Positions 38,288 to 56,833 of a DNA stretch of 64,000 bases are shown in pieces (the first letter of the stretch is position 1; every line of letters begins with the position of its first letter). The DNA is from Chloroflexota bacterium (GTDB lineage Bacteria; Chloroflexota; Anaerolineae; UBA1429). The position numbers were made by a program, and so were the translations under genes. The notes under the pieces are model-generated. The model was not told the origin of the DNA, searched no databases, and saw only the letters and a list, made by a program, of their open reading frames with translations. The stretch is from NCBI GenBank assembly GCA_021372475.1, contig JAJFUJ010000162.1:15173-79172 (forward strand), given 5' to 3'.

Positions 38288-39802
38288 ATGGCGCTTTCGT
38301 ATATTAGTCCGCAGTTTATCATCGAACGGGATGCATCGCGCTGCATCGCTTGCCAGGTATGCGTGCGGCAGTGCGCAAACGATGTCCATTCGTATAATGA
38401 GGAAGACGGTCTGGTCAGCAGCCACTCGTTGAATTGTGCGGGCTGTCACCGCTGCGTAACCGCCTGTCCGACTCAAGCCTTGAATGTACGCCTTTCGCCG
38501 CTCGACTTTCGCCCGCACGCAAACTGGACGCCTTCCATCATCACGAATATCTACAAACAGGCGGAATCAGGTGGTATGCTGCTCACGGGGATGGGCTGTG
38601 ACCAGCCGTACCGCATCTACTGGGACCATATGGTGCTCAATGCCTCGCAAGTAACCAATCCTTCCATCGACCCGTTGCGTGAACCGATGGAGCTCAAAAC
38701 TTACCTCGGCAGCAAGCCGGAGCAGCTCGAGTTCAGCCAGTCTCAGGATGGACTCGAACTCGACACAGAGATAGGTCCGCAATTGGAACTGGCCATACCG
38801 ATCATGTTTTCGGCCATGTCTTATGGCTCAATCAGTTTTAACGCCTGCGAGAGCCTGGCGCGCGCCGCCCAGATCGCCGGCACCTACTATAACACCGGTG
38901 AAGGCGGGTTACATCCTGACCTGTACAAATATGGGGCAAACACCGTCGCTCAGGTTGCTTCGGGGCGGTTTGGCGTTCATCTGAACTACCTAAATGCCGT
39001 CGCCGCGCTTGAAATCAAGGTAGGGCAAGGCGCCAAGCCTGGCATCGGCGGTCATTTGCCTGGGGAGAAAGTCAGCCTGGATATCTCGCGCACACGTATG
39101 ATTCCTCAGGGCACCGATGCGATTTCTCCCGCGCCGCACCACGATATTTACTCTATCGAGGATTTACGGCAGCTTATCTTCGCCCTCAAAGAAGCCACCC
39201 ATTACAGCAAGCCCGTCAGCGTCAAGGTGGCGGCGGTGCACAACATCGCCCCGATAGCCAGCGGCATCGTGCGCGCCGGCGCGGATATCGTGGCCATCGA
39301 CGGCCTGCGCGGCGGCACCGGCGCAGCGCCGACGGTCATCCGCAACAATGTGGGAATCCCCATCGAGATGGCCATCGCAGCGGTTGACCAGCGCCTGCGG
39401 GATGAAGGTATTCGCCACCGCGCGTCGCTGGTCGCGGCCGGCTCCATCCGTTCCAGCTCCGATGTCGTCAAGGCAATTGCGTTAGGGGCCGACGCCGTGT
39501 ATATAGCCACCTCGGCATTGGTTGCGCTGGGCTGCCATCTCTGCCAGCGCTGTTACACCGGCAAGTGCAACTGGGGCATCGCCACGCAGGACCCCTACTT
39601 GACCAAACGCCTTAATCCCAACATCGGCGCGCGCCGTTTGGTCAACCTGCTGCGCGCCTGGTCTCTGGAGATCAAAGAGATGATGGGCGGGATGGGCGTC
39701 AACTCGATTGAATCGCTGCGCGGTAACCGCGACCACCTGCGCGGCGTGGGGCTGAACCAGGTAGAGCTAGATGCATTGGGCATTAAGGCGGCGGGTTACT
39801 AG
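38288..39802 (+). CDS. gltB: Archaeal-type glutamate synthase subunit (FMN/Fe-S domain, GltB domain-2 homolog) with an N-terminal 2x[4Fe-4S] ferredoxin domain
   Basis: CIACQVCVRQC and CAGCHRCVTACP motifs. GOGAT FMN-domain blocks GEGGLHPDL, KVGQGAKPGIGGHLPGEKV and LRGGTGAAP. Confidence 0.85.
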   Translation: MALSYISPQFIIERDASRCIACQVCVRQCANDVHSYNEEDGLVSSHSLNCAGCHRCVTACPTQALNVRLSPLDFRPHANWTPSIITNIYKQAESGGMLLTGMGCDQPYRIYWDHMVLNASQVTNPSIDPLREPMELKTYLGSKPEQLEFSQSQDGLELDTEIGPQLELAIPIMFSAMSYGSISFNACESLARAAQIAGTYYNTGEGGLHPDLYKYGANTVAQVASGRFGVHLNYLNAVAALEIKVGQGAKPGIGGHLPGEKVSLDISRTRMIPQGTDAISPAPHHDIYSIEDLRQLIFALKEATHYSKPVSVKVAAVHNIAPIASGIVRAGADIVAIDGLRGGTGAAPTVIRNNVGIPIEMAIAAVDQRLRDEGIRHRASLVAAGSIRSSSDVVKAIALGADAVYIATSALVALGCHLCQRCYTGKCNWGIATQDPYLTKRLNPNIGARRLVNLLRAWSLEIKEMMGGMGVNSIESLRGNRDHLRGVGLNQVELDALGIKAAGY

Positions 39803-39822
39803 CGTATCTTGGGAGTTAAGGC

Positions 39823-40281
39823 ATGAAAAAGAAGCGTATCGTGATCCACGAGGAATACTGCATCGGCTGCCGGCTGTGCGAGGTGCACTGCCTGGTGCAG
39901 CACAGCAAGTCCAGGGATATCGTCAAAGCCTTCAAAGAAGAACGCTCCAGTACGATGGCCCGCGTCATGGTGGAAGAGAGCGGCCCGGTTTCGTTTGCCT
40001 TACAGTGCCGCCAGTGCAGCGAATCCAACTGCCTCGAAGCCTGCATCTCAGGCGCTATGCACCGCGATCCGGAGACTGGCGCCGTAGTCTGCGACGAGAG
40101 CAAATGTGTGGGCTGCTGGATGTGCATCATGGTCTGCCCGGCCGGCGCAATCCGCCAGAACCTGACCGGTACGCACATCGCCAGCAAATGCGACTTGTGC
40201 TACGGCTCTGCTATGCCGGCCTGCGTGCTAAACTGCCCCAATGAGGCTTTGACGTATGAAGAAGTGGAAGTGAGGGACTAA
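39823..40281 (+). CDS. 4Fe-4S dicluster ferredoxin-domain protein (GOGAT electron-transfer subunit)
   Basis: CIGCRLCEVHC and CVGCWMCIMVCP cluster motifs. Confidence 0.75.
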   Translation: MKKKRIVIHEEYCIGCRLCEVHCLVQHSKSRDIVKAFKEERSSTMARVMVEESGPVSFALQCRQCSESNCLEACISGAMHRDPETGAVVCDESKCVGCWMCIMVCPAGAIRQNLTGTHIASKCDLCYGSAMPACVLNCPNEALTYEEVEVRD

Positions 40282-40284
40282 CCC

Positions 40285-41562
40285 GTGCAGATTATAATCA
40301 TCGGCAATTCCGCAACCGCCGTCGGCGCGATAGAGTCCTTCCGCGAGTACGACCAGAGCGCTGAAATTACCGTGGTTAGCGAAGAACCTCACCTGATATA
40401 TTCGCGCCCTCTGTTATCGCATTTTCTAGGGAAGGAGATCGAGCGCAGCCGCCTGGCCTACCGCCCCAGCGACTTTTATGTGAAGCACAGTATTCGACCC
40501 ATACTGGAAGATGCCGTTACCGCCGTCGAGCCGGAGGCGCATACCATTAGGACCGCGTCGGGACTAAGCCTGCACTATGACAAATTGCTCATCTGCACCG
40601 GCGGCACGCCGATTGTGCCCCCACTGCAAGGCATCGATATACCAGGTATATATACCTTCACCAAACTGCAGGATGCACTATCCATTGAAAGATATATTGA
40701 TGACTATCCCATCTCCCGCGCGGTGGTGGTTGGCGGCGGCATGATCGGCATCAAGGCTGCGAACGCGCTGATGAAACGTGGCATCCCGCTGACGATGGTC
40801 GAACTTGCACCGCGTATCCTGAGCGCAGCTATGGATGAAGCCGGTTCAGCAATGCTGACCCAGATACTAGCGGAGCATTCCGTTCAGGTTCTTACGAATA
40901 ACACGGTTACCAGCATCCATCAGTCAGAAGGCCGTTTCAGCGGAGTGACCTTACGCGACGGCCGCGAACTGGGCGCGGAACTGCTCGTATTCGGGATTGG
41001 GGTGCGGCCGCGGGTTGAACTCGCCAAAGCAGCCGGCCTGGTCGTTAACAAAGGTATTGTCGTCGATAAGTTTATGCGCGCCTCAGCGCCCGATATCTAC
41101 GCCGCCGGCGATGTGGCCGAAGCCTACGACCTCGTGGTGGATATGAACCGTACCGTTGCTATCTGGCCGAATGCCTACCGCCAGGGAGCAATAGCTGGCG
41201 CTCATATGGCTGGAGTCGATCGGGCAGACATCGGCGGAATTGCTATGAACGCCGTCGAAGTATGCGGTGTGCCGGCTATGTCCATCGGCAACGGCAACGT
41301 CACCGGCTCAGAGTATGAAGTATTATCCGAGATCGACGAACGTTCCCAGAATTATAAACGGTTGGTGCTGCAGAACGACCGTCTAGTGGGAGCTCTCCTG
41401 ATAGGCAACATCTCACGGGCGGGCATCTACACCGGGTTAATCCGCCACAAGCTCGACGTGAGCAGCGTGCGCAAGAACCTGCTTAGCGAGCACTTTGGGC
41501 TGCTCTCGTTGCCCGACCAATACCGCAAGCATGTCGTCTCCGGCTCGAGCATCGAGATTTAG
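40285..41562 (+). CDS. FAD/NAD(P)-dependent pyridine nucleotide-disulfide oxidoreductase (GltD-like reductase partner)
   Basis: Two Rossmann dinucleotide motifs (IIIIGNSATAVGA, VVVGGGMIGIKAA). GTG start 3 nt after the previous stop. Confidence 0.75.
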   Translation: MQIIIIGNSATAVGAIESFREYDQSAEITVVSEEPHLIYSRPLLSHFLGKEIERSRLAYRPSDFYVKHSIRPILEDAVTAVEPEAHTIRTASGLSLHYDKLLICTGGTPIVPPLQGIDIPGIYTFTKLQDALSIERYIDDYPISRAVVVGGGMIGIKAANALMKRGIPLTMVELAPRILSAAMDEAGSAMLTQILAEHSVQVLTNNTVTSIHQSEGRFSGVTLRDGRELGAELLVFGIGVRPRVELAKAAGLVVNKGIVVDKFMRASAPDIYAAGDVAEAYDLVVDMNRTVAIWPNAYRQGAIAGAHMAGVDRADIGGIAMNAVEVCGVPAMSIGNGNVTGSEYEVLSEIDERSQNYKRLVLQNDRLVGALLIGNISRAGIYTGLIRHKLDVSSVRKNLLSEHFGLLSLPDQYRKHVVSGSSIEI

Positions 41563-41574
41563 GAGGTATGAGCA

Positions 41575-42732
41575 ATGGCATGGGCTGATAGTGAAAACCG
41601 TTACAAGCAGGATAAAGTTTACGATGCCTGCGGTCTTTTTGGATTTATAGACACAACGGGGGCCAAGCACGACGGCAATAAGGTTGTGGCCGCACTCAAT
41701 AGCATGAAAGAGCGCGGTAACGGGCTTGGAGCAGGATATGCAGCCTATGGATTGTATCCCGAGTTCAATGACCATTATTGCTTCCATACCATGCACAGCG
41801 ACGAAGCCCACCGCCTCGAACTCGACACTTACCTGCGTAAGCACTTTGCCGTCGTCCACGATGAGCCTATCCCGCATAAACACGTGCAAGAGATCCTCGA
41901 CCCACCGGTAGTCTGGCGCTACTTTCTTTTTCCGCAGAGCGCCCACATGGTTGGGCGTTCCGAAGAGGATTACATCGTCCACGAAGTGATGCACATCAAC
42001 TCCCATTTCGAGGGTTCTTTTGTGGTTTCCAGCGGTAAGAACATGGGCATCTTTAAAGGCGTCGGACACCCTGAGGCGATTGCCGAGTTCTATCAGATCC
42101 AAAACTACCAGGCATACATGTGGACCTCGCACAACCGGTTCCCTACCAATACCCCGGGCTGGTGGGGCGGCGCCCATCCGTTTGGGTTGCTGGATTGGTC
42201 AGTGGTGCACAATGGCGAGATATCCTCCTACGGCATCAACCGACGCTATATCGAGCAGCACGGTTATTGCTGCACCATGCGTACCGATACCGAGGTCTTT
42301 GCCTATGCCGCCGACCTGCTTGTGAGGCGACACCACCTGCCCTTTGAGATTGCTGCGGCTGTGTTCGCCAGCCCGCTTTGGTCGGATATTGAGCGTATGT
42401 CAGAACGCGAGCAGCGCATATATCGTGCGCTGCGCCAGACTTACGGGCGATTGCTAATGAACGGACCTTTTACCATCATTCTAGCCAAGTCCGGCGTGAT
42501 GATGGGATTGGGCGACCGCATTCGGCTGCGTCCGCTGGTAGCTGGCATCAGGGGGGGCACGCTCTATGTTTCCTCCGAGCTCTCATCGATCTACCTGGTC
42601 GAACCGGAAATCGAACAAACCTGGATGCCGCAAGGGGGTGAACCGGTAATCGGCAGGCTTGGCACGGCTCCTCAAGCCCCACAGGAACACAAGCAGGTTC
42701 ACAGAGTGGTAGCACAAGGAGTGGAAGCATGA
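41575..42732 (+). CDS. Class-II (Ntn) glutamine amidotransferase subunit of archaeal-type glutamate synthase (GltB domain-1 homolog)
   Basis: Ntn nucleophile context DACGLFGF (the Cys is preceded by a 17-residue propeptide). Also NGLGAGYAAY and HNRFPTNTPG blocks. Confidence 0.8.
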   Translation: MAWADSENRYKQDKVYDACGLFGFIDTTGAKHDGNKVVAALNSMKERGNGLGAGYAAYGLYPEFNDHYCFHTMHSDEAHRLELDTYLRKHFAVVHDEPIPHKHVQEILDPPVVWRYFLFPQSAHMVGRSEEDYIVHEVMHINSHFEGSFVVSSGKNMGIFKGVGHPEAIAEFYQIQNYQAYMWTSHNRFPTNTPGWWGGAHPFGLLDWSVVHNGEISSYGINRRYIEQHGYCCTMRTDTEVFAYAADLLVRRHHLPFEIAAAVFASPLWSDIERMSEREQRIYRALRQTYGRLLMNGPFTIILAKSGVMMGLGDRIRLRPLVAGIRGGTLYVSSELSSIYLVEPEIEQTWMPQGGEPVIGRLGTAPQAPQEHKQVHRVVAQGVEA

Positions 42733-43493
42733 GCACTGCCGCTGTACAAACTAAAACCCAAACGTTGGACGCCGGTGGCTTGTATTACCGCGATCTGAAC
42801 GAACGTCTGCTGGAACTGGTAAACGAAGGCGCAGAGACTGTCGAAATACTCAATGTGAACGGTCAGCGTTACCTGGGAACCAACCTCCAACGCCCGGTGC
42901 GGCTGATCGTCCACGGTATTCCTGGCAATGACCTGGGCGCTTTCATGGACGGCCCGCAAATTACGGTATTAGGCAGCGCTCAGGACGGCTGCGGCAATAC
43001 GATGAACTCGGGTTCAATTATCATCCATGGCTCAGCGGGCGATATCCTGGGACACTCGATGCGCGGCGGCACTATTCTGGTGAAGGGTAACGTGGGCTAC
43101 CGCGTTGGCATCCACATGAAAGAATACGAGACCGTCCGACCGGCTATTGTCATTGGCGGCACCGCGCAGCATTTTCTAGGGGAATATATGAGCGGCGGTG
43201 TGCTGGTGGTGCTGGGCTTGAACCTGGATAGCGATGAACTGCATCCGACCCATTTTCTAGGCACGGGTATGCATGGCGGCGTGATATTTATGCGCGGGCG
43301 TGTAGATGCTTCCTACTTAGGGAAAGAAGTCGGCCAGGAGAAAATGGACGATGCGGATAACTGGCTGCTGCAGCGTTTGGTCCAAGAGTATGCCGATACC
43401 TTCAAAGTTGACTCCGAAGGCATCTTTAGTGTACCATTCATCAAATTAGTGCCGCGCACAAAACGCCCTTACGGGCAACTCTATGCCTATTGA
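42729..43493 (+). CDS. Glutamate synthase GXGXG-domain subunit (GltB domain-3 homolog)
   Basis: Repeated GXGXG beta-helix motifs (VHGIPGNDLGAFMDG, IHGSAGDILGHSMRGG, VKGNVGYRVG). 4-nt overlap with the upstream gene. Confidence 0.85.
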   Translation: MSTAAVQTKTQTLDAGGLYYRDLNERLLELVNEGAETVEILNVNGQRYLGTNLQRPVRLIVHGIPGNDLGAFMDGPQITVLGSAQDGCGNTMNSGSIIIHGSAGDILGHSMRGGTILVKGNVGYRVGIHMKEYETVRPAIVIGGTAQHFLGEYMSGGVLVVLGLNLDSDELHPTHFLGTGMHGGVIFMRGRVDASYLGKEVGQEKMDDADNWLLQRLVQEYADTFKVDSEGIFSVPFIKLVPRTKRPYGQLYAY

Positions 43494-43507
43494 TGATGGT
43501 GTAATGC

Positions 43508-44317
43508 ATGCATCCCTATCTGAACTTGGACTGCGAGCGCGAGACCGCACGTATCTGCCGGTTTATCGCGCAAACGCTTTGCGAAGCACATTGCTCCAAG
43601 CTGGTGCTTGGACTTTCCGGCGGAATAGACTCCACCCTGATAGCCACCCTTGCGGTGCGTTGCCTTGGCGCAGAGAACGTGCTGGGTGTGCTGATGCCGT
43701 ACCGCACATCTAACCCGGATAGCACGGCCCACGGCCTGTTGGCCGCCAAGACATTGCATATCCATCCGCGGCGTTTTGAGATAACGCTCATGGTAGAAGC
43801 GCTCAGCAAGGCCAACCCGCATATGAGCGCTTTGCGTATGGGCAATATTATGGCGCGCTGCCGGATGACCGTGCTCTATGATTGTTCAGCCGATTTCGGC
43901 GGATTGGTCGCTGGCACAAGCAACCGCACCGAAACGCTGCTTGGTTACTTTACCTTGTACGGCGATAGCGCCGCGGCGCTCAAGCCGATCGCCCATCTAT
44001 ATAAATGCCAGGTCAGGCAGTTGGCGGCTTACTTGGGATTACCGCAGGTGATTATAGATAAGGCTCCCAGCGCCGACCTCTGGGAAGGGCAAACCGACGA
44101 AAGTGACCTGGGCTTTACCTATGACCAGGCTGACGAAGTGCTGTATTTGCTAAGCGAATGCCACTGGAGTATCGCTCAGGTTGCTGCGGCAGGCATCGGT
44201 GCGGAGATAGCCCAAGCTGTCGCCAAGCGCATGGCAGCGAATGCTTTCAAGCGCGCTGAACCAGCCGCGTTAATCCCTGATAATCCACTGGCACAATCAC
44301 CAGCGGCAGTGCGGTGA
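43508..44317 (+). CDS. nadE: NH3-dependent NAD+ synthetase
   Basis: PP-loop LGLSGGIDST. Length of 269 aa. Confidence 0.85.
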   Translation: MHPYLNLDCERETARICRFIAQTLCEAHCSKLVLGLSGGIDSTLIATLAVRCLGAENVLGVLMPYRTSNPDSTAHGLLAAKTLHIHPRRFEITLMVEALSKANPHMSALRMGNIMARCRMTVLYDCSADFGGLVAGTSNRTETLLGYFTLYGDSAAALKPIAHLYKCQVRQLAAYLGLPQVIIDKAPSADLWEGQTDESDLGFTYDQADEVLYLLSECHWSIAQVAAAGIGAEIAQAVAKRMAANAFKRAEPAALIPDNPLAQSPAAVR

Positions 44318-45444
44318 ATATGCTTAAAAATAAAGGACTACTGGCTCTCGAGGATGGCAGCACCTATGCAGGCGAATCGGTTGCCGCAGCGGGCGAATGG
44401 GTGGGCGAGATTGTCTTTAACACCTCGATGATGGGCTATCAGGAGATCATCACCGACCCCTCCTATTGGGGACAGATGGTGGTCTTCACCTACCCGCATA
44501 TCGGCAATGTCGGCGTCAACGAACAGGATGTCGAATCCAGGCAGCCATATGTGCGCGCTGTGATTGCCCGCCAAATTTGTAAACAACCTTCCAATTGGCG
44601 CGCTACCAGCTCACTTCCCGCTTATTTATGTCAAGCGGGTGTGCCCGCCCTATCGGGGATAGACACCCGCAGCTTGACGCTAAGGCTGCGCACCAAGGGC
44701 GTTATGCGGGCAGCCATTTCTACCGTTCGTTTCGAGCCGGAGCGGCTCATCGAGATGGCGCGCAATGCGCCGGATATGAGCGCACTGGAGCCGGCCGATG
44801 AGGTAACCTCCGCTATAGTGAACCGCTGGACGGAAGCTATCCCGGAAGCCTGGCAGCCGGTAGTGCGCACGAGCTGCAAAGCTCCCCTGGTTGTAGTGCT
44901 TGATTGCGGCACAAAGCGCAATATCATGCGCTGCCTGGTTACCTTCGGGGCGCAGGTTACGACAGTGCCTGCTTCCACATCGGCTGAACGTATCCTGGCG
45001 CTCAAACCGGATGGCGTGCTGGTGAGCAACGGGCCGGGCGATCCCACGAGTTGGCTGCCGACCGTTGAGACCATCCGCCAATTGATTGGGCGGGTGCCTC
45101 TCTTTGGATTATGTCTCGGACATCAGCTTATCGCCCTAGCCTGCGGTGCACGTACTTATAAATTGCCGTTCGGGCACCACGGCAGCAATCATCCAATCCA
45201 ACCTGTGGGCGGCGGCCTGGTTGAGATAACAGCTCAGAATCATAACTATGTGGTGAGCGGCGATTCTATCGCCAACTCTCCCCTGGAAGTAACCTACCGC
45301 AATCTGAACGACGGCACTATCGAGGGCCTGCGTTCTGCTGCGCTGCACATTACGACCGTTCAACACCACCCCGAGGCTTCGCCAGGGCCGCACGATAGCC
45401 GGCACCTGTTAGCTGAATTTGTAAACTCGCTTGGTGAAGCTTAG
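44314..45444 (+). CDS. carA: Carbamoyl-phosphate synthase small (glutaminase) subunit
   Basis: [32 protein letters not shown]. Triad context GLCLGHQL. Confidence 0.92.
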
Positions 45445-45467
45445 CTGTAACACCCTTAGGAAATTGT

Positions 45468-48400
45468 ATGCCTAAACGAAATGACCTGCACAGGATTCTG
45501 ATAATCGGCTCCGGCCCGATCGTCATCGGCCAAGCTTGTGAGTTCGATTATTCCGGGACACAGGCCTGTAAAGCCCTGCGCGAAGAGGGCTATCAGACGG
45601 TGCTCGTGAACTCGAATCCTGCTTCGATTATGACCGATCCCGAGATTGCCGATATCACCTACATTGAGCCATTGACGTCTCAGGTACTGGAGCGCATCAT
45701 CGCCCAAGAACGGCCTGATGCCTTATTATCGACGATGGGCGGGCAGACTGCGCTCAACCTCGCGACCGAGTTGTTCCGCTCCGGCGCACTGGAACGCTAC
45801 CACGTCGAGCTAATCGGCGCCAACGCGCACTCGATCGAGTTGGCCGAGGACCGCGAGCTGTTCAAGCGCACCATGCTGGGGGCCGGACTGGATGTCCCGC
45901 GCAGCTTTTCCATCACCACGCCCGAAGAGGCGCGGATGGTGCTCGCGCAGGTCGGTTTGCCGGCCATCATCCGTCCTTCGTTTACCCTGGGCGGCACGGG
46001 GAGCGGCATCGCCTATAACCGTGAGGATTATGACGAAATGATTGACCACGGCCTGGAGCAAAGCCCGGTGCACCAGGTGCTGGTTGAGGAATCGGTTATC
46101 GGTTGGAAAGAGATCGAGATCGAAGGCATGCGCGATGCGGACAGCAACTTTGTTGTCGTCTGCACAATCGAGAATATGGACCCGATGGGGGTTCATACGG
46201 GCGACAGCATCACGGTAGCGCCCATTCAGACGTTGACCGATAAGGAGTACCAGGTACTGCGCGACCAAACTCGCATCATCATGGAATGCGTCGGAGTAGA
46301 GACCGGCGGATCCAATGTCCAGTTCGCCATCCACCCCGAGACGGGGCGCACCGTCGTCATCGAGATGAACCCACGCGTCTCGCGCAGTTCAGCCTTATCC
46401 AGCAAAGCTACCGGCTTTCCGATAGCCAAAATCGCTGCCAAGCTGGCCGTCGGCTACCGTTTGCCCGAAATCAGAAACGACATCACGCGCGAGACGCCGG
46501 CCTCTTTCGAGCCGATGCTGGATTATGTGGTGGTCAAGATTCCACGTTGGAATATGGAGAAATTCCCGCAGGCTGACGCGACACTCGGCACGCAGATGAA
46601 GTCGGTCGGCGAGGTGATGGCGATTGGCCGCACCTTTGGCGAGGCGCTCAATAAAGGTCTCTGCGCTCGTGAAGACAGCCGCGACGGCATCTTTGACCGT
46701 GAGGCCGCTAATGCTTCGCTGGAAGAGATCCGGCGGCACTTGATAGTGCCTAACCCGGAGCGTGTCTTTTATATTGTGCCGGCCCTCGATGCCGGATTGA
46801 GCATTGCTGAAATTAACGAGCTTGCGCACATCGACCCCTGGTTCCTGCGCGAGATTGACTCCATGCGCGAGCTGCGCGATCAGATTAGCGGAGCGCCCCT
46901 GGAATCCATTGATGCGGATATGTTGCGCACACTCAAACGCGCCGGATTTGCTGACCGATTGATTGGGCGTCTCGTTTCCCCCAAGCTGCCCGAACTCGAG
47001 GTGCGCGCCTACCGCAAGAGATTAGGCATCCTGCCGGTCTATTCGCGTGTAGATACTTGCGCCGCCGAGTTCCCGGCGCACACCCCCTATCTCTACAGCA
47101 ACTATGAATCGGTATGTGAAGCCGACCCAAGCAGTGCACGCAAGATAATCGTCCTCGGCAGCGGACCAAACCGCATCGGGCAGGGCATCGAATTCGATTA
47201 TTGCTGTACCCACGCCGTCAAGGCCTTCCGCGAGATGGGTTTTGAGACCACCATGATTAACTGCAACCCGGAAACGGTCTCTACCGATTATGATGAAAGC
47301 GACCGGCTCTACTTTGAACCGCTGACCCTGGAGCATATCCTCAATATCTGCGACCTCGAGCACCCCGAGGGTGTAGTCGTGCAATTCGGGGGGCAGACGC
47401 CGCTCAAACTGGTGGGCAAGCTGGCCGCGGCCGGTGTGCCTATCCTGGGGACCTCGCCGGAGGGGATCGACCTGGCGGAGGATCGCGAGCGATTCGGCGC
47501 GCTGATGCAAGAGATTGGCCTGCCGATGCCTGACCATGGCTGCGCTCGTTCGCCCGCTGAAGCCTTCGAGGTTGCCAGCAGTATCGGTTACCCGGTCATC
47601 GTGCGGCCTTCTTATGTCTTGGGCGGCCGGGCAATGGCCATCGTATATACTCCCCAGGATTTGGAGCAGTATATCCGCTCTGCAGTGCAGGTAGCCGAGG
47701 ATACGCCGATTCTAATCGATAGATTTCTCGAGGATGCTTTCGAAATGGATGTGGACTGCGTCTGTGATGGGAAGGACGTCCGCATTGCCGCCATTATGGA
47801 GCAGATCGAGCTGACCGGCGTGCACTCTGGTGACAGCGCCTGTGTGATTCCAACCGTCATGGTGGGCGAAGAGGCGCTGCAGACGCTGCGCGACTATACG
47901 CGGCGCCTGGCTCAGGCGCTCAAGACTGAGGGCTGCCTCAATATCCAGTATGCGATGAAAGATGGCACCGTATACGTCATCGAAGCTAATCCGCGCGCTT
48001 CACGGACTGTGCCGTATGTCAGCAAGGCTACCGGCGTCACCTGGGTGCGGGTAGCTTGTGAGATCCTGGCCGGGCACATGCTGCAAGAGATGCATGTCCC
48101 TGATGAACCGCTGTTGCACGGACATTTTTGTAAGGAAGTCGTCATGCCGTTTCTCAAATTCCCCGGTGAGCCTGCCATCCTGTTGCCCGAGATGCGCAGC
48201 ACCGGTGAGGTGATGGGCATGGACGAAAGTTTTGGTATGGCCTATGCCAAGGCGCAGATGGCGGCCGGCAACTCGCTGCCGACGCGGGGCACGGTGTTTC
48301 TTTCGGTTAACAACCACGATAAGCAGAACCTGCTGCCAATCGCGCAGAAACTGGCAGCCCTTGGCTTCAAGATGGTCGCCACTCGCGGGACTGCCCAGGC

Positions 48401-48695
48401 TTTGCGTACGGCAGGGCTGGATGTCGCCACCATCCTCAAAGTTAGCGAAGGCCGTCCGAACGGTGTTGATTTGATAATCAACGGTGAAATCGACTTGGTC
48501 ATAAATACACCGCTGGGCAGCCGGGCCTTTGGTGACGAGCACCTGCTGCGCCAAGCAGCGATAAACCACGGCGTGCCTGTACTGACAACTTTGTCAGGAG
48601 CACATGCGGCGGCGATGGCAATCGAGAGTTTGCGCAACGGTCGTGTTGAGGTAAAGAGTCTGCAGGAGCACATGCGGGAACGGATTGGCGGTTAA
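45468..48695 (+). CDS. carB: Carbamoyl-phosphate synthase large subunit
   Basis: 1075 aa with duplicated ATP-grasp halves ([24 protein letters not shown] / [24 protein letters not shown]) and the MGS-like C-terminus. Confidence 0.95.
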
Positions 48696-50194
48696 TGCCT
48701 CCTTCAGAAGCGGTTGTTACGGTTCGCGACATCATACACCTGGCGCTGCCTTCTGGGACTACTGTCGCCGGCGGGAGCTCGGCGCTCGAGCATAAGGTTG
48801 AGTGGGTAACCTCGCTGCGTGCAGCGTTTCCCCTGTTTGGCTCGCTGGATAGCGGCTATCTGGCGATTGCCAGGCTGAGCCTGGCTCGCGGCCTGGATAA
48901 CCGGATTACTCCGGCTTATCTGATTGCCGAGCTACACCGCGTCGAGGCGGCCGCCCTGGTTGTCGATGAACCCATCTCTGAGCAGGATGCTCATTTAGCT
49001 GATGAGTTTGCTCTCCCCGTTATCTGTCTCCCTCCCGCCAGCGATCTGTATGAGATTGAGCGCAGCGCTCTGCGCACCATTATCGACCGCGAGGGTCAGA
49101 TAACCCGACGCGAACTAGAGATACGCCAGCGTCTGTACGCAGTATTCGAGCGCGGCGGAATAGAGTCACTCCTCGCTGAAGCCGCTGCAATCTGCGGTGG
49201 CAGATGGGTGCTATATACCCCCAACCACTCCCGTGTGGCATCCGCTGGCAGCGGCAGCCAGCCGCAGGAGCAGCAATACCTCGTTTCTGTCGCCGGACGT
49301 ACCCATGGTCAGCTTTCGGTATTTTTGGAGCATACGCCAACCAATTTAACCGAACAAATCACGGTTCGTCAGACGGTTGATATTTGCGGGATCGCTCTGG
49401 TGGAGCTAACCGCCCGACGTGAAGCTGAGGAACGCTTCGGCGCCGAATTGATCGAGCAACTCCTGAACAATACGGAGGATGGAGCGACCATTACCAAGCG
49501 GTTAGAGCGGCTCGGTCTATCGGTAATAGATAACAATTGCAGTATCGCCGCCGTGCTGGGCGGAGTTGGCGACCATGCTGCAGCAGCCAGCGAGGATGTC
49601 GCTTTTCGCCTGGTCAATATCAGCAAGCAGGATGGCGCTCAGGCTATTGCGGCCCCGTATCGGCATCTGATTGTCGTGATAATGAGCACGAAAAACCAGA
49701 TGCCGGATCGTACCAGCCATCGGTGGCTGCAGCAGGCATTCGAGCCGACCAGCGCAGACTGCATGGTCGGCGTGGGACGCTGCTTGCACGGAGTAGCGGG
49801 GATTCGCCAATCCGTGCTGCAAGCGATTGATGCCTGGGATCTTGGGCAGTATATCAAGACTACCAGCGGTCCGTTTTACTACGAGGAACTCGGATTGTAC
49901 CGTTTACTCGCCCGGCTGCGGGGTAACGATGAGATGCACCGCTTTTACCAGGAAACCTTGGGAGCGCTGGCTGATTATGACAAGCGCCACAATGCCGAAC
50001 TCGTACATACGCTTGCAGTCTTTTTTGAACAGAACGCGAACGCCAGCCAAGCCGCACGCGCTCTCTACATTCACCGCAACACGCTTAATTACCGCTTACA
50101 GAGAATCTGTGAAATCACTGGGCTCAACCTTGAGGATCCTGAAGCTCGCTTAGCGTTTCAAATTGCCCTAAAAATTCACCGAATATCTGCCTAG
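48695..50194 (+). CDS. PucR/CdaR-family transcriptional regulator
   Basis: C-terminal PucR-type HTH (ASQAARALYIHRNTLNYRLQRICEITGL). The start codon overlaps the carB stop (ATGA). Confidence 0.75.
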   Translation: MPPSEAVVTVRDIIHLALPSGTTVAGGSSALEHKVEWVTSLRAAFPLFGSLDSGYLAIARLSLARGLDNRITPAYLIAELHRVEAAALVVDEPISEQDAHLADEFALPVICLPPASDLYEIERSALRTIIDREGQITRRELEIRQRLYAVFERGGIESLLAEAAAICGGRWVLYTPNHSRVASAGSGSQPQEQQYLVSVAGRTHGQLSVFLEHTPTNLTEQITVRQTVDICGIALVELTARREAEERFGAELIEQLLNNTEDGATITKRLERLGLSVIDNNCSIAAVLGGVGDHAAAASEDVAFRLVNISKQDGAQAIAAPYRHLIVVIMSTKNQMPDRTSHRWLQQAFEPTSADCMVGVGRCLHGVAGIRQSVLQAIDAWDLGQYIKTTSGPFYYEELGLYRLLARLRGNDEMHRFYQETLGALADYDKRHNAELVHTLAVFFEQNANASQAARALYIHRNTLNYRLQRICEITGLNLEDPEARLAFQIALKIHRISA

Positions 50195-50322
50195 TTGGGC
50201 ATCTTGCACAAATACTCGCCGGCTATACTGTCATACTTGCCCGATGTGAAAGCGTTTCGAATCGTATATATTCTTTAGCGTAACTTGCCTTACGCGCCAT
50301 GCTGCAATGGGGAGTTGCTGTA

Positions 50323-51648
50323 ATGTTTTACTCCGTAAATCAAGTGCTCCAGCTCGTACAGGAAGGAGAAATTCAGTTTATTAACTTGCAATTCTCCGAC
50401 ATTGTTGGGCTGCTCAAGAGCATCACATTGCCTGCCAAGCAGCTCGAACAAGCTTTTACAAACGGAGTCTGGTTCGATGGCTCCTCGATTGAAGGATTTG
50501 CGCGCGTCAGTGAGAGCGATATGTTCCTTGTGCCGGATCCTGCCTCGTTCGCCATCATCCCTTGGCGAGATGGGGCTCATAAAACCGCCCGTTTGATTTG
50601 TAACGTATATACGCCGGATGGCGATGAGTTTATTGGCTCACCGCGCGGCGCCTTGAAGCGCACCGTAGCCGAAGCCGCCAAGTTAGGTTACTCGTACCAA
50701 GTTGGCCCAGAGTATGAGTTCTTTTTGTTTGGCACCGATGACAATGGCGATCCAGATCCGGATGTTATCCATGACCATGCCGGCTATTTTGATTCCACTG
50801 CTGACAGGGCGACCCTGGTCAGGCAAGATATGATAAACGCTCTGGAAGCGTTAGGCATCGAGGTCGAGACCGGACACCACGAGTGTGCGCCCGGGCAGCA
50901 TGAAATCGATTTTAGGTACAGTGATGCCTTGTCCGCTGCGGATAATTCGATTACTTTCAAATACGTTCTCAAAACAATCGCACAAAAGCATAATTTATAT
51001 GCTTCATTTATGCCTAAACCACTGATGTCTGTGCCGGGCTCGGGCATGCACTGTCATCAAAGTCTGTGTTTTTTAGAGACCGGCAGCAATGCCTTTGCCG
51101 ATGCTGCCGACCCCTATGGCTTATCGAAAACAGCCAAGCAGTTTATCGCCGGCCAGCTTGCGCATGCGCGCGGCATGTCGGCAATTGTTGCCCCTTTGGT
51201 GAACTCTTATAAGCGCCTTGTGCCAGGCTATGAGGCACCTATTTATGTGAGCTGGGCGCGCATTAATCGTTCGGCGCTGATTCGCGTCCCGCGCTCCAAT
51301 AATAGTAACGTGCGCTTGGAGTTGCGCTGCCCTGACCCCAGTTGCAACCCATATTTGGCGTTGGCCGTCATGCTGGCAGCCGGGTTGGATGGAATTGTCA
51401 ACGATTTACCGCTGCCTGACCCAACCGAAGAGGATTTATTCGAATCCGAATGGGCCCGCCACGGGCTACAGATGTTACCCCGCACACTGCGGGAAGCGCT
51501 GGATGAGCTGGAGCGAGACACCGTTATCCAGCAAGCACTGGGGCCGCATATCCTTGAGCGTTTTGTGGATGCTAAAACGCAGGAATGGGAGGATTATCGT
51601 GTTGATGTGAGCTCTTGGGAGCGCAACCGTTACTTGAGGATTTTCTAA
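50323..51648 (+). CDS. glnA: Glutamine synthetase type I (GSI-alpha-like, no adenylylation tyrosine)
   Basis: GS beta-grasp and catalytic domains (FDGSSIEGF, GPEYEFFLF, MPKPL...GSGMHCHQSL). F replaces Y at the adenylylation-site position (EEDLFESEW). Start moved to ATG 50323, which lies behind a GGGGAG RBS. Confidence 0.85.
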   Translation: MFYSVNQVLQLVQEGEIQFINLQFSDIVGLLKSITLPAKQLEQAFTNGVWFDGSSIEGFARVSESDMFLVPDPASFAIIPWRDGAHKTARLICNVYTPDGDEFIGSPRGALKRTVAEAAKLGYSYQVGPEYEFFLFGTDDNGDPDPDVIHDHAGYFDSTADRATLVRQDMINALEALGIEVETGHHECAPGQHEIDFRYSDALSAADNSITFKYVLKTIAQKHNLYASFMPKPLMSVPGSGMHCHQSLCFLETGSNAFADAADPYGLSKTAKQFIAGQLAHARGMSAIVAPLVNSYKRLVPGYEAPIYVSWARINRSALIRVPRSNNSNVRLELRCPDPSCNPYLALAVMLAAGLDGIVNDLPLPDPTEEDLFESEWARHGLQMLPRTLREALDELERDTVIQQALGPHILERFVDAKTQEWEDYRVDVSSWERNRYLRIF

Positions 51649-51753
51649 CGTTATCAGAGTGAATCCTGGGATTAGTTAGGTATACCTGATATTGGATAGC
51701 AGACAATGGGCTTAATGACGTTATTTATTATTTTTCGCATGGGAGGGATCTAG

Positions 51754-53169
51754 ATGCCAGGTTCTGTAAAGGATGTTTTAGAATTGGGTAAAAGCGTCAA
51801 GATGGTGGACATCCGCTTCACTGATTTGCCGGGTGTTTGGCAGCATTTTACCATTCCTGTTAACCGCCTGGATGAAGACTTGTTTACAAATGGAATAGGT
51901 TTTGACGGTTCGTCGATCCGCGGCTTTAAGGAGATTCACGAATCCGATATGCTGCTTATGCCGGATCCAGCCAGCGCGTTCATCGACCCGATTTTTGAGG
52001 TGCCAACCCTGGATATCGTCTGTGACGTCTACGACCCGGTTACGCTCCAACCATACGGCCGCGACCCGCGCTATGTAGCTCGCAAGGCCGAGGCTTATCT
52101 CAAGCAGACCGGCATCGCCGACTCAGCCTATATGGGGCCTGAGGCTGAGTTCTTTATCTTCAGTGATGTACGTTACGGCGTTGAATCAAATTCTGCCTTC
52201 TACCGTATTGACAGCCCTGAAGGCTGGTGGAATTCAGCCAGCGAAGAAGGCACCCACCTGGGCGGACAGATTCCACCCAAACGCGGCTATTTCCCCGTCC
52301 CACCTACCGACACCCTGCAGGATGTCCGTAGCAAGATGGTGCTGGCCTTGATGGCCAGCGGCATGGAGATAGAGATTCATCATCACGAAGTCGCTACGGC
52401 CGGTCAATCAGAAATTGGCCAAAAGTTCAATACGCTGCTCAAATCTGCTGACGGCGTGATGAAATACAAATACATCATCAAGAACGTAGCGCGCCAAAAC
52501 GGGCTCACCGCGACATTTATGCCCAAGCCGCTCTTTGGCGATAACGGCAGTGGGATGCACACCCACCAAAGCTTGTGGAAGAAGGGCGTCAATCTCTTTT
52601 ACGACGAAGCCGGTTACGCCCAACTCTCCGACTATGCCCGCTGGTATATCGGCGGCCTGCTCAAACACGCCCCTGCGCTGTTAGCTTTTACATCGCCAAC
52701 CACCAACTCCTACCGCCGCTTGGTGCCTGGTTTTGAAGCGCCGGTTATCCTGGCATATTCACAGCGCAACCGTTCGGCCGCCTGCCGTATTCCAGTGTAT
52801 TCCAAGAGTCCCAGCGCCAAACGCGTCGAGTTCCGCCCGCCCGACCCGAGCTGCAATCCTTACCTGGGCTTTGCCGCGATGTTAATGGCCGGCCTGGATG
52901 GCATCCAGAACCGCATCGACCCCGGCGAACCGATGGATAAAGATCTCTACGGCCTAAAGCCGGAGGAACTCGAGGCAATCCGGCAGGTGCCCGGTTCACT
53001 CACTGCCGTACTCGATGCTGTTGAGGCCGACCACGACTTTTTGACCAAGGGAGATGTCTTCACGGAGGATTTGATCGAGACATGGGTAAGCTACAAGCGC
53101 GAAGTCGAAGCTGCACCCATGAGCCTGCGCCCGCATCCTTATGAGTTTATGCTCTATTACGATATTTAG
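51754..53169 (+). CDS. glnA: Glutamine synthetase type I (GSI-beta, adenylylation site conserved)
   Basis: GS motifs [18 protein letters not shown] and [19 protein letters not shown]. Adenylylation loop [12 protein letters not shown] (E. coli NLYDLPPEE). GGGAGGG RBS. Confidence 0.9.
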
Positions 53170-53190
53170 GTCTTAGCTGCAATCCTCCTC

Positions 53191-53227
53191 CACACAAGCC
53201 GGGCTTAGCCTGGCTTGTGTGTTTTTG
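53191..53227 (+). terminator. Rho-independent terminator after GSI-beta (CACACAAGCCGGG-cttag-CCTGGCTTGTGTG + TTTTTG)
   Basis: 13-bp near-perfect inverted repeat followed by a T-run, 22 nt past the stop. Confidence 0.6.
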
Positions 53228-53272
53228 CGTGATGCCTAAACTAAACCCATAACTCACAGGATTACAGCATCA

Positions 53273-56200
53273 ATGGCAGACTGGCTCGATCCGCGTTTGG
53301 AACCTGTTCTAGAGCGTTTATTACGTTCTATCCCATCTGCGGCTATCCCAGATAGATGGGCAGCTACACTAGTACATGCTCTGAGTACTACCGCTAACCC
53401 TGAACGCGCCCTGCTGAATCTGGATACGTTCAGCCAAAGCGTCGGCGATGCGGCCGCATTCTGGTCCGAGCTGGCAACAAGTCCTCGTCTACTGCAGATA
53501 CTGCTTAGCCTGTTTGCCGGCAGCCAGCACCTCTCGCAGGTATTGATCCGCCACCCAGAATACTGGCCGCGCCTGGTACAGATCCCGTCGCTCGCTCATG
53601 CGGTAGTCCTGCAGCAATATCTGGATGAATTGCAGGTCTATCAGGAATCTGCGGATGACCAGTTACTATCGCAAAACCTCTGCCGTTGGCAGGGATGGGA
53701 AATGCTGCGCATCGGGCTGTGCGATCTGGCTGGTCTGATGGATCTGACTGCCGTCACGACTCAGCTATCCCTTCTGGCGGAGAGCCTGGTGCGCATTTGC
53801 CTGCAGAGGAACCTGAAAAACGAGGCGGCCCAAGGTTTCGTCATCTTGGCATTGGGCAAGTTGGGCGGCCAGGAACTCAACTACAGCTCTGATATTGACC
53901 TGATCTGCTTATCTGAGCATGACACAATTGCTTACGTGCGGGCGGCTGAGCAGGCCGTGCACTTGCTCAGTCAAGTTACCAGCGAAGGTTTTCTTTACCG
54001 AGTGGATATGCGTCTGCGTCCCTGGGGGCAGTCGGGCTCTTTAGTGCCGACGCGAGCTGCCTATACCCGCTACCTGAAGCAGAGCGCCCGCTTGTGGGAG
54101 AAACAGGCTCTGCTCAAAGCGCGTCCAATTGCCGGCGATTTAGCTTTTGGCGCCGCCTTTCTGGCAGAGACCCAGCCGCTTCTGATGAGCTGCGACAACG
54201 AGGCTATTCGCAGCGATGTGCGCGAGATGAAGCAGAAAATCGAGGATGACCTGGCAGAGCACGGCCGCGCCTGGGGCGAAGTCAAACTAGGGCGCGGCTC
54301 TATACGCGATGTTGAGTTTGTTACCCAGTATCTGCAGTTGACGCACTGCGGTAAACATCCTGCCATATTGGGTGGCAACACGGTGAATGTCCTCAAACAG
54401 TTGAGAGACGAGAAAATTATCACCTCGCACGATTACCGTGTTCTGGTCGAAGGATACACTTTTTTACGGCCGCTGGAGCATTACCTGCAGATGACGGATT
54501 ACCGCCAGGTTCACATACTTCCGCAGGAGCAGCATGAACTCGATGCCCTGGCACGCCGGCTCGGATTCCGCGGCGCCAAGGCGGGTGAAGTGCTGCTTGC
54601 CCGGTATCATGAGCATTCTGAAGCGATTCGCGCCGTTTATGAGCAGCAGCTATACGGCAAGGAGGCCGCTATGACAGCTCAGCATAATGCTCTCGAACCC
54701 CTCGTACGCCGCCACCTCGAAAGGCTTAGCCCCTTCTATCTAGAGACGTTTACCGCCGTCGAAATCCAGCACCATGCCGAGTTAATCGAAAGGTTGAATG
54801 AACATAACCTTGTGGAGGTCGAAGCAACAGTAAACCGTGATAGCCAGGTCGCTCTGACGATTGTGGGGTATGACTTCCCCGGCGAATTGTCGCTGATTTG
54901 CGGCTTGCTTTTCGTACATGGCTTTAGTATCAGTGATGGCAACATATTCACCTACGAACCTGCTGAAAACCACCACGAAGAGCTTTCTCGTGAAGAGCAG
55001 CGTCGTAAAATCGTCGATGTCCTGAATGTTACCGAAATACACCCAAGCGGCATAGCCGATATCTGGCAGCGTTACCATGACGATCTCGAGGCGCTTCTGG
55101 CTCAAGTGGAACATGGCAATTCATTGGCCGTACAAGCGGATTTAGCCAGTCGTATTGCGGTTGCCTTACCACCTGCCAATGAGGCCGACATTCATCTGCA
55201 TCCAATCGAGGTCCGCATCGACAACACTTCATCGGAGCGCTATACCTTGCTGCATATCGAGGCGGCCGATACGATGGGCTTCTTATACGAGCTGACTAAC
55301 GCCCTGGCCTTGATGGGTTACCAGATCTCATTGGTGACGGTGGATTCAACCGGGCAGCGCGCGCATGATATTATCTACCTTACGGATGCTGCCGACCGTA
55401 AGGTAACCAGCAAAACCCGCAAGAACGAACTGACCACAGCAGTCATATTGATCAAACACTTTACCCATCTGCTGCCAAGGTCGCCTAATCCGGAATCGGC
55501 CCTGCTGCATTTCCGCGAGTTAGTGGCAGAATTGATGCGCCGCCCCGACTGGATGCATGAGCTATCCTCTCTGGAAAGTCCGGATGTCCTCGCTGTCCTG
55601 ACTAAATTGCTGGGCGTGAGCGACTTTCTATGGGATGACTTCCTGCGCCTGCAGTATGACAGCTTGTTCCCTTTGCTAAACGATATCAACGAGTTAAATG
55701 CAGTCAAGACGCCGCCCGAGCTCGAGGCTGAACTGTGCGCCTTGCTGGACGCTGCGCCTGACTATGCGGCCAAACGCGAGGCACTCAACCGCTTCAAAGA
55801 CCGCGAGATGTTCCGCATCGACTTGCGCCACATCCAGGAGTTAGTCGGCAGCTTTGCCCAGTTCGCCCATGAGTTGACCGACCTGGCTGACGTCGTTATC
55901 CGCACAGGTATTGAGCTGTGTATCGAGCGGGTAGCGGGCCAATACGGCGAGCTGCGTGATGCAACAGGCAACCTTGTGCCCTGGTGCTTGAGTGCGTTGG
56001 GCAAGTGCGGCGGCCGTGAGCTCGGCTATGCCTCTGATATCGAGCTGCTCTTTATCTATTCCGGCATAGTGTCTCCCAACTTGGCCATTTCAGCGAACGA
56101 GTATTACAACAAGGTTATCGTAGAGCTGCTCAACCTGATCCAAAGTAAGCATGAGGGTATATTCCATATCGACTTGCAGCTTCGGCCGTTCGGGAGCGCC

Positions 56201-56833
56201 GGCAGCATCGCCGTGCCGCTGGAATCCTTCCAGCGCTATTACGCTCCGAATGGGGCTGCCTGGCCGTATGAGCGCCAGGCGTTAATCAAGCTGCGGCCCC
56301 TCGCCGGCGACTCGGCATTGGGAGAGCAACTGCTCGGGTTGCGCGACCAGTTTGTCTTTCGCTCGGAATCGCTGGATATCCAGGCAATCAGGGCGATGCG
56401 CGAACGTCAGGTTCGCCAATTGGTGGCGGGGGGTACGCTTAACGTCAAGTTCAGCCCAGGCGGCACTGTCGATGCCGAATATCTTGTACAGACGCTGCAG
56501 ATTCGCTACGGCCAGCATAACCCCGAGCTGCGCCTGGCAAACACCCTCGACGCGATGGGCGCTTTACATCAGGCCGCTATTCTGACGGATGACCAATACG
56601 CGCAGCTTCAGGAGAGCTACATTTTCCTACGGCGTATGGTGGACTCGCTGCGCATGGTGCGCGGCAATACGCGCGACCTGACAGTGCCGGAGCCGGGCAG
56701 CGATGAATACGCTTACCTGGCCCGGCGTATGGGGCTTCATCGCGACATAGATAAACTGGGCGCTCATATAGCGGAAGCGATGAGCACTATCCAGCGCTTG
56801 CAGGCGCAGTTGTGGGCTGCATCTACCCTTTAG
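53273..56833 (+). CDS. glnE: Glutamine synthetase adenylyltransferase/adenylyl-removing enzyme GlnE with two inserted ACT-like domains
   Basis: Two GlnE nucleotidyltransferase cores (LGKLGGQELNYSSDIDLICL, LGKCGGRELGYASDIELLFIY). Between them, two ACT-like segments (VALTIVGYDFPGELSLICGLLFVHGFSISDG, LLHIEAADTMGFLYELTNALALMGYQISLVTVDSTGQRAHDIIYLTD). 1186 aa, versus about 950 aa for a canonical GlnE. Confidence 0.85.
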   Translation: MADWLDPRLEPVLERLLRSIPSAAIPDRWAATLVHALSTTANPERALLNLDTFSQSVGDAAAFWSELATSPRLLQILLSLFAGSQHLSQVLIRHPEYWPRLVQIPSLAHAVVLQQYLDELQVYQESADDQLLSQNLCRWQGWEMLRIGLCDLAGLMDLTAVTTQLSLLAESLVRICLQRNLKNEAAQGFVILALGKLGGQELNYSSDIDLICLSEHDTIAYVRAAEQAVHLLSQVTSEGFLYRVDMRLRPWGQSGSLVPTRAAYTRYLKQSARLWEKQALLKARPIAGDLAFGAAFLAETQPLLMSCDNEAIRSDVREMKQKIEDDLAEHGRAWGEVKLGRGSIRDVEFVTQYLQLTHCGKHPAILGGNTVNVLKQLRDEKIITSHDYRVLVEGYTFLRPLEHYLQMTDYRQVHILPQEQHELDALARRLGFRGAKAGEVLLARYHEHSEAIRAVYEQQLYGKEAAMTAQHNALEPLVRRHLERLSPFYLETFTAVEIQHHAELIERLNEHNLVEVEATVNRDSQVALTIVGYDFPGELSLICGLLFVHGFSISDGNIFTYEPAENHHEELSREEQRRKIVDVLNVTEIHPSGIADIWQRYHDDLEALLAQVEHGNSLAVQADLASRIAVALPPANEADIHLHPIEVRIDNTSSERYTLLHIEAADTMGFLYELTNALALMGYQISLVTVDSTGQRAHDIIYLTDAADRKVTSKTRKNELTTAVILIKHFTHLLPRSPNPESALLHFRELVAELMRRPDWMHELSSLESPDVLAVLTKLLGVSDFLWDDFLRLQYDSLFPLLNDINELNAVKTPPELEAELCALLDAAPDYAAKREALNRFKDREMFRIDLRHIQELVGSFAQFAHELTDLADVVIRTGIELCIERVAGQYGELRDATGNLVPWCLSALGKCGGRELGYASDIELLFIYSGIVSPNLAISANEYYNKVIVELLNLIQSKHEGIFHIDLQLRPFGSAGSIAVPLESFQRYYAPNGAAWPYERQALIKLRPLAGDSALGEQLLGLRDQFVFRSESLDIQAIRAMRERQVRQLVAGGTLNVKFSPGGTVDAEYLVQTLQIRYGQHNPELRLANTLDAMGALHQAAILTDDQYAQLQESYIFLRRMVDSLRMVRGNTRDLTVPEPGSDEYAYLARRMGLHRDIDKLGAHIAEAMSTIQRLQAQLWAASTL

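Follow-up and report, generated by a model that had tools for sequence, protein, structure and literature searches.

The stretch of 64,000 nucleotides analysed here (the window), from contig JAJFUJ010000162.1 of a Chloroflexota bacterium of the class Anaerolineae, carries two adjacent genes for glutamine synthetase (GS) and, directly downstream of them, a gene of the glnE family, which is the subject of this study (Table 1). Control of GS by adenylylation is a textbook cascade, understood almost wholly from enterobacteria, in which a separate sensor, GlnD, and a transducer, PII, inform the GS-modifying enzyme GlnE. The glnE gene of the window is a single uninterrupted reading frame for a protein of 1186 amino acids (aa), 100% identical to the NCBI protein 'glutamine synthetase adenylyltransferase [Chloroflexi bacterium]' from a metagenome-assembled genome (MAG). 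Between the two nucleotidyltransferase (NT) halves of this protein lies an insert that is a genuine tandem pair of ACT domains, homologous to the C-terminal sensor of GlnD.

Pfam finds in the protein two tandem NT halves, each with PF03710, the GlnE NT domain (E = 5.5e-87 for the two copies in the whole protein), followed by PF08335 (two copies, E = 2.7e-39). The pol-beta-type motifs (G-x-G-G...SD-x-[DE] and a third Asp) are intact in both halves, and the catalytic residues, at aa 195-210 with D245 and at aa 910-925 with D967, are invariant in 120/120 homologues. The nearest NCBIfam models are the GlnE equivalogs, though all three cutoffs are missed; by domain content the protein belongs to the GlnE family, yet to judge from its profile scores it is no equivalog of the curated canonical types. 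An identity as GlnD was considered and ruled out: no HD phosphohydrolase domain is matched by Pfam in the protein, there is no GlnD-type NT domain, and the best GlnD equivalog model of NCBIfam scores 96 bits, far under its cutoff of 959. Some homologues are named '[protein-PII] uridylyltransferase family protein' at NCBI, which reflects only the ACT and PF08335 parts that the two families have in common.

Compared with GlnE of Escherichia coli K-12 (946 aa), the protein is longer by exactly 240 residues, as an earlier reading of the DNA from the letters alone (the sequence-only reading) had estimated. In eight canonical proteobacterial and actinobacterial GlnEs the NT motifs of the two halves are 503-528 aa apart, whereas their median spacing is 728 aa (706-797) in 120 long-form homologues; because of this difference we regard an insertion of about 200 residues as real. 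These 120 best database homologues come mostly from Anaerolineae MAGs, and 119 of them are at least 1140 aa long (median 1228); in this survey of GlnE lengths and architectures, of the kind that the sequence-only reading had proposed, the long form is clade-wide. Mean column identity is 60% in the insert and 62% over the whole protein, which puts the insert on a par in conservation with the remainder of the protein, catalytic cores included. Signature peptides of the insert occur in 352 GTDB species genomes, and among the matches listed (80 of the 352) every one except two bears a Chloroflexota label (Anaerolineales, Ardenticatenales, Caldilineaceae and others), the two being an unclassified 'bacterium' and a 3-kb 'Nitrospinota' contig. 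That contig (L048; RFHZ01000629.1, 3153 nt, 'Nitrospinota bacterium') holds a fragment of a long-form glnE with an Anaerolineae-like insert at 50% identity, and its placement probably results from misbinning and does not reflect where the gene truly occurs. Databases already contain sequences of this kind by the hundred, with their ACT hits precomputed, and in the literature searched we found no description of a GlnE with ACT domains. GlnE with the ACT pair is the standard GlnE of the Anaerolineae.

The extra 200-230 residues or so (aa ~514-736) make up two ACT domains. Both are covered by the span 54821-55420 (residues 517-716) in which the sequence-only reading had recognised ACT-like domains, and from which it had quoted the peptide GYQISLVTVDSTGQRAHDIIYLTD (residues 682-705). 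In the whole protein, aa 467-725 match the C-terminal positions 681-920 of a 940-position NCBIfam GlnD model. When the insert (aa 459-734) was searched alone, to keep out any contribution from the NT and PF08335 parts, it proved colinear with the C-terminal stretch of the GlnD models that spans ACT1 and ACT2 (NF003467, positions 689-920 of the 940 in the profile, E = 1.2e-22; TIGR01693, E = 9.4e-19), and its two halves, tested separately against the GlnD models, gave E = 1.7e-5 and E = 3.5e-16. The alignment begins, at profile position 689, in the helices that precede ACT1, which align with residues 660-700 of E. coli GlnD. ACT2 exceeds the threshold of PF24931, the ACR9-like ACT family of Pfam, with a match at aa 647-723 (27.2 bits within the full-length sequence, 30.8-31.6 when searched alone; cutoff 27), and carries an invariant DT.GFLYE..ALA; PF01842 stays under its cutoff (18.8-23.4 vs 27 bits).

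The fold agrees with the profiles. An AlphaFold2 model of aa 470-745, from an alignment that included 28 homologous inserts, has a mean predicted local distance difference test score (pLDDT) of 87.3 and a predicted template modelling score (pTM) of 0.87, and shows a helical lead-in followed by two beta-alpha-beta-beta-alpha units, that is, the ferredoxin-like ACT fold, beta-alpha-beta-beta-alpha(-beta). In ACT1 the strands span aa 514-520, 526-533, 551-560 and 579-588 and the helices aa 538-548, 597-613 and 617-631, with a variable loop at 561-578; in ACT2 the strands span aa 646-650, 658-665, 684-693 and 696-704 and the helices aa 670-680 and 714-736. Foldseek supports the ACT fold with matches to the ACT-like region of the mycobacterial 180-kDa glutamate dehydrogenase, SerB2 and IlvA; there is no solved structure of GlnD for such a search of the insert model to find, and by sequence the insert gave nothing meaningful against PDB chains. 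Identity to the ACT domains found in GlnD of E. coli is low, about 21%. The D-x-x-G-x-L loops between the first strand and the first helix are family-invariant in both ACT domains and common to those of E. coli GlnD. Profiles, model and structural matches together bear out the earlier proposal that the extra segment consists of two GlnD-like ACT domains, and the structure prediction suggested for checking it returned the pair. The variable loop of ACT1, between its second and third strands (window ~54953-55006), ranges from ~10 to >40 residues among homologues, is often rich in Arg and Pro and is modelled with low confidence.

The two NT halves can be told apart by their active sites. In E. 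coli the adenylyl-removing (AR) domain is N-terminal, the adenylyltransferase (AT) domain C-terminal, with a central regulatory region between them (PMC12409994). The N-type half of the window protein has the motifs GKLGGQELNYSSDIDL (aa 195-210) and VDMRLRPWG (aa 244-252), both unchanged across the 120 homologues and in agreement with the AR half of E. coli; it also carries ELNYSSDIDL...VDMRLRPWGQSGSLV and has VDMRLRP.G.SG.LV in common with that AR half. The motifs of the C-type half, GKCGGRELGYASDIEL (aa 910-925) and IDLQLRP (aa 966-972), are likewise invariant in the 120 and resemble ELGYSSDLDL of the E. coli AT half. In canonical GlnEs collected from ten genera, ELN..SD.D occurs in 10/10 AR halves, as in the N-half of the window protein, and ELGY.SD.D in five of the eight AT halves in which the motif was identified; ELGY is also found in the window C-half. 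The second acidic residue is always Glu (SD.E) in C-type halves, against SD.D in canonical halves. A neighbour-joining tree of 58 half-domains (100 bootstraps; C-type halves from 23 proteins) intermingles the N-type halves with canonical AR halves (mean distance 1.47, vs 1.76 to AT) and places the C-type halves in a separate clade (bootstrap 99/100). Motif and tree thus support an AR-like, deadenylylating type for the N-type half, as the sequence-only reading had held, and the C-type half would be the adenylyltransferase, from its ELGY motif and by elimination.

A swapped domain order was also considered. Searches with phmmer against the PDB and with BLAST against the E. coli halves gave a weak reciprocal preference for it; both window halves map to the same part of each NCBIfam profile, and the family profiles do not separate the two halves of E. 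coli GlnE (AR and AT, 253.5 vs 253.3 bits; 180 vs 175). Whole-half scores being ambiguous, the swapped order was rejected on the active-site motifs and the half-domain tree, which decide for an AR-like N-type half but do not place the C-type half. The helical connector of the C-type half has a stretch of low model confidence at aa 762-803.

The place of the ACT pair in this architecture becomes clear from its relatives. An exhaustive search with the insert profile gave 243 representatives at E <= 1e-30, with two architectures beyond the fused form, namely proteins of ~710-790 aa with an N-terminal ACT module and, after it, a single GlnE half, and proteins of ~1240-1274 aa in the order ACT-ACT, half, half. 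With halves typed by motif (GK.GG.ELG[YF][AG]SD.E for C-type, GKLGG.ELNYSSDID for N-type) and BLAST, the ACT module is followed by the C-type motif ELG[YF].SD.E in 87/87 cases, at a median distance of 165 aa, and directly by an N-type half in 0/87. In the split form (P0130, P0167, P0180, P0188 and P0193 among others) a gene for an ACT-ACT-C-type protein of ~740 aa lies beside a separate gene for an N-type, AR-like half of 512-574 aa. Named members come from Nitrospira, other Nitrospirota and Abditibacteriales; the fused form is found in one Spirochaetia MAG. One split pair (L084, 6419-10241) is in tandem, with the N-type gene upstream on the same strand and a gap of 44 nt; another (L096, 6211-10280; Nitrospira, 4.7-Mb contig) is divergent and lies beside a HisKA/sigma54-activator pair that resembles NtrB/NtrC. 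In both, the genes break where the window protein has its linker at aa 463-473, which coincides with a low-confidence segment of the full-length model. At a further locus (L097) the ACT-C gene has no AR-half gene within 8 kb. The permuted order ACT-ACT-C-N, the reverse of the canonical AR-then-AT, was seen in seven proteins of ~1240-1274 aa (P0197, P0212, P0220, P0229, P0234, P0259 and P0263; for example L085, 8001-11762).

It follows from the split and permuted relatives that the ACT pair is an N-terminal regulatory module of the C-type half and no neutral linker insert: it is tethered directly upstream of one clade of NT halves, while the AR-like half may be joined on ahead of this unit or behind it, or may have a gene of its own. 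The description of two domains inserted between the halves is misleading, since the split and permuted relatives tie the pair to the downstream, AT-like half. Two side observations belong here. In the Nitrospira locus a gene for a Fic-domain protein (an AMPylase; L096, 10379-11506) lies directly downstream of the ACT-AT gene, and there are ACT-ACT-only proteins of ~300 aa (P0164, P0170, P0185, P0186, P0208 and P0230; one, from a Deinococcus sp. MAG, is flagged partial), which may be genuine stand-alone proteins or gene fragments.

The neighbourhood of the gene is one of nitrogen assimilation: on the forward strand, 38288-56833 form a cluster with a split glutamate synthase (GOGAT), NAD synthase, carA, carB, a PucR-type regulator, the two GS genes and glnE. 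The nearer GS, of 471 aa, is 56% identical to E. coli GS, whose adenylylation loop is AMDKNLYDLPPEE, and the farther, of 449 aa, is 37% identical to it. Across 81 loci (flanks of up to 10 kb), a GS of the 471-aa type directly adjoins the long glnE in ~40, and the Tyr is kept in 36/38; a GS with the loop PMDKDLY.LPP lies beside glnE. The window enzyme is thus encoded next to a type I GS whose Tyr loop could be adenylylated, and this 471-aa GS is its likely substrate. The 449-aa GS is probably no target, so that one GS would be regulated by GlnE and the other not.

Table 1. Features of the glnE gene, its product and the surrounding cluster (positions in the window)
Feature	Position	Strand	Basis and remarks
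Split (archaeal-type) glutamate synthase, gene 1	38288-39802	+	Pfam; Glu_synthase with Fer4
Split glutamate synthase, gene 2	40285-41562	+	Pfam; Pyr_redox
Split glutamate synthase, gene 3	41575-42732	+	Pfam; GATase_2
Split glutamate synthase, gene 4	42729-43493	+	Pfam; GXGXG
NAD synthase	43508-44317	+	Pfam
carA	44314-45444	+	Pfam
carB	45468-48695	+	Pfam
PucR-type helix-turn-helix regulator	48695-50194	+	Pfam
Second type I GS, 449 aa	50299-51648	+	Pfam, sequence; Phe replaces the adenylylation Tyr (EEDLFESE)
Type I GS, 471 aa	51754-53169	+	Pfam, comparison with E. coli GS; adenylylation loop PMDKDLY399GLKPEE
glnE-family reading frame, 1186 aa	53273-56833	+	ORF list, Pfam, NCBIfam; NT(N-type)-helical-ACT-ACT-NT(C-type)-helical
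N-type half, AR-like, aa 1-462	53273-54658	+	Pfam, motifs, neighbour-joining tree; PF03710 and PF08335
Flexible linker between N-type half and regulatory module, aa 463-473	54659-54691	+	pLDDT <50 in full-length model
Pre-ACT helices, aa 476-506	54698-54790	+	GlnD model alignment, AlphaFold2 helices; homologous to the GlnD segment before ACT1
ACT1, aa 514-631	54812-55165	+	Ligand-loop motif D534-x-x-G537-x-L539
ACT2, aa 646-736	55208-55480	+	PF24931, GlnD models, AlphaFold2; ligand-loop motif D666-x-x-G669-x-L671
C-type half, AT-like, aa 737-1186	55481-56830	+	Pfam, motifs, tree; helical connector, PF03710 NT, PF08335

The partners of the enterobacterial cascade are not found near the gene. 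A six-frame motif scan and tblastn revealed neither PII nor the HD domain of GlnD in the 64-kb window, as the sequence-only reading had noted for glnB and glnD, and the HD region of E. coli GlnD, used as a tblastn query, matched nothing in the window or in the flanks of 80 loci. PII is encoded near the long glnE in 1/81 loci (L082), an Anaerolineae MAG in which two consecutive amtB-glnK pairs lie about 3-6.6 kb downstream of the gene (8819-12360); the first of these PII proteins does not have the usual context of the T-loop Tyr (GKQSAVGTTPDGVTLYAG). Since PII genes are thus present in the clade, and since a window of 64 kb says nothing of the whole genome, the suggestion of a control independent of PII is unsupported.

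Nor does canonical GlnE sense nitrogen only indirectly, through PII, as the sequence-only reading had assumed: glutamine is an allosteric regulator of the E. coli AT/AR enzyme itself, through a third site that is separate from those for PII and PII-UMP (PMC5448240). Direct glutamine sensing would therefore be no new capability of a GlnE; the novelty lies in a sensor module that is portable and can be recognised as such. E. coli GlnE (PDB 1V4A, 3K7D) resembles the window protein in its two halves of PF03710 and PF08335, with the G-x-G-G...SD-x-[DE] and D-x-R-L-R-P motifs, an AR-like N-half and ELGY in the C-half, in the same tyrosine loop of the presumed GS substrate and in a regulatory region between the halves (PMC12409994). 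It differs in having no tandem ACT pair, so that no ACT domain accounts for its glutamine site, to which no domain can be assigned by recognition, and the C-type half of the window protein belongs to a separate clade. With GlnD the insert is colinear from the pre-ACT helices to ACT2, and the D-x-x-G-x-L loops are common to both; GlnD, however, has its ACT pair on the C-terminal side of the catalytic domains and the window protein on the N-terminal side of the half with which it travels, and the presumed target is GS, not PII.

GlnD needs its ACT domains in order to respond to glutamine, and the alpha-amylase AMA2 of Chlamydomonas is activated by glutamine through a GlnD-like ACT domain (PMC11190351); the plant protein ACR11 binds GS2 and ferredoxin-dependent GOGAT (PMC4944146, PMC3173338). 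The ACR proteins and AMA2 are precedents for ACT domains of this type as a portable glutamine switch, but they are eukaryotic, with the repeats standing alone or with one ACT domain attached to an amylase, whereas here a tandem pair is embedded in GlnE. Actinobacterial GlnEs, such as those of Streptomyces and Mycobacterium, likewise stand outside the enterobacterial paradigm. In Tsukamurella, glnA and glnE are adjacent. Unlike the window protein, actinobacterial GlnEs have canonical NT spacing (506 aa in Tsukamurella) and no ACT insert. In Streptomyces coelicolor, adenylylation of GS reportedly needs neither GlnK nor GlnD (Hesketh et al. 2002).

We consider it rather probable that the window protein is a bifunctional GS-deadenylylating and GS-adenylylating enzyme of the GlnE family with a built-in GlnD-type module, of helical lead-in and two ACT domains, that senses nitrogen status. 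By analogy with GlnD the enzyme probably reads that status directly. The conserved D-x-x-G-x-L loops of the ACT pair would bind a small ligand that reports nitrogen status, and the homology to GlnD, together with the plant ACR proteins and AMA2, makes glutamine the most likely ligand and direct glutamine sensing by the pair plausible. Once bound, the ligand would activate the AT-like half beside the pair and would shut off the AR half by a direct or an indirect route; at high glutamine the neighbouring GS would then become adenylylated and inactive.

Several results weigh against this account. The protein scores below the cutoffs of the curated GlnE models (NF010707, 533 vs 625 bits; NF008292, 434 vs 487; NF010706, 387 vs 724), and ACT1 has no Pfam match at all, being recognised only through the GlnD models, at the E = 1.7e-5 given above, and through its fold. 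The full-length AlphaFold2 model has a pTM of 0.46, so that contacts of the ACT domains with either catalytic domain are not reliably pictured. In the half-domain tree the C-type halves are equidistant from canonical AR (mean distance 1.96) and AT halves (1.97), and whole-half BLAST and profile scores do not discriminate, BLAST even slightly favouring the swapped assignment; because neither decides, the AT assignment rests on motif and elimination. ACT domains, moreover, bind many ligands, and their specificity is not readable from sequence.

This last point opens the way to a sensor for something else, such as another amino acid, 2-oxoglutarate or a nucleotide, with a control logic unlike a GlnD-like glutamine switch. 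The structural neighbours bind diverse ligands (Lys or Thr in aspartokinase, Ile or Val in IlvA, Arg in CASTOR, Ser in SerB and phosphoglycerate dehydrogenase), the identity to the E. coli GlnD ACT domains is as low as noted, and in AMA2 the sensitivity to glutamine survived an exchange of the conserved Asp, so that conservation of the motif is no proof of specificity (PMC11190351). We nonetheless hold a different ligand to be unlikely, for outside the GlnE-linked family the best sequence relatives of the pair are C-terminal regions of GlnD and no other ACT families, and the pathway context of GS, GOGAT and carAB is centred on glutamine. Less likely again is a mainly structural or docking role, in oligomerisation or as a surface for PII or GS, in which the pair would replace the central region of E. 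coli GlnE and control would still depend on PII. The canonical ligand-loop motif is invariant in both ACT domains across 28-120 homologues, PII is encoded near glnE at one locus of 81, and in split systems the pair stays attached to one of the catalytic halves, which is how an allosteric module would behave.

It could also be asked whether the C-type half modifies GS at all, or instead a target such as PII, or uses another nucleotide, which would make the protein a GlnD-like sensor-transferase joined to a GS-deadenylylating half. The separate C-type clade, equidistant from canonical AT and AR halves, would allow it, as would the GlnD-like nature of the adjoining module, the uridylyltransferase name of some NCBI records and the occurrence of ACT-C genes alone, with no AR-half gene nearby (as at L097). 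We think it very improbable, however: the C-type half is recognised by PF03710 (in split forms with E = 1e-38 to 1e-47) but has no match to the NT domain of GlnD, its ELGY.SD motif resembles that of canonical AT halves, a GS with the adenylylation Tyr is a recurrent neighbour, and an AR half with no partner AT would have nothing to reverse.

The preferred account, a GlnE with a built-in GlnD-type sensor, can be carried further. We speculate, tentatively and with more doubt than belief, that the ACT pair with its C-type half forms a self-contained, glutamine-gated GS adenylyltransferase which, together with a fused or separate AR half, replaces the whole GlnD-PII-GlnE relay, and that it would do so in several phyla that would lack GlnD, namely Anaerolineae, Nitrospira and other Nitrospirota, Abditibacteriota and some Spirochaetota.

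A sensor of the GlnD type is here wired into GlnE and locked in evolution to one catalytic half, which offers a concrete and mutable candidate for an allosteric site as well as a prediction of which activity the module gates. The series of fused, split and permuted forms is a clean natural experiment on domain coupling. As the architecture is standard in Anaerolineae and occurs split in Nitrospira, it bears on how ammonium assimilation is controlled in bacteria that are abundant in wastewater, soil and sediment, and it offers a testable hypothesis of nitrogen sensing by one protein. If the replacement of the relay is true, it would amount to an unrecognised and widespread form of post-translational control of nitrogen assimilation, including that of environmentally important nitrifiers.

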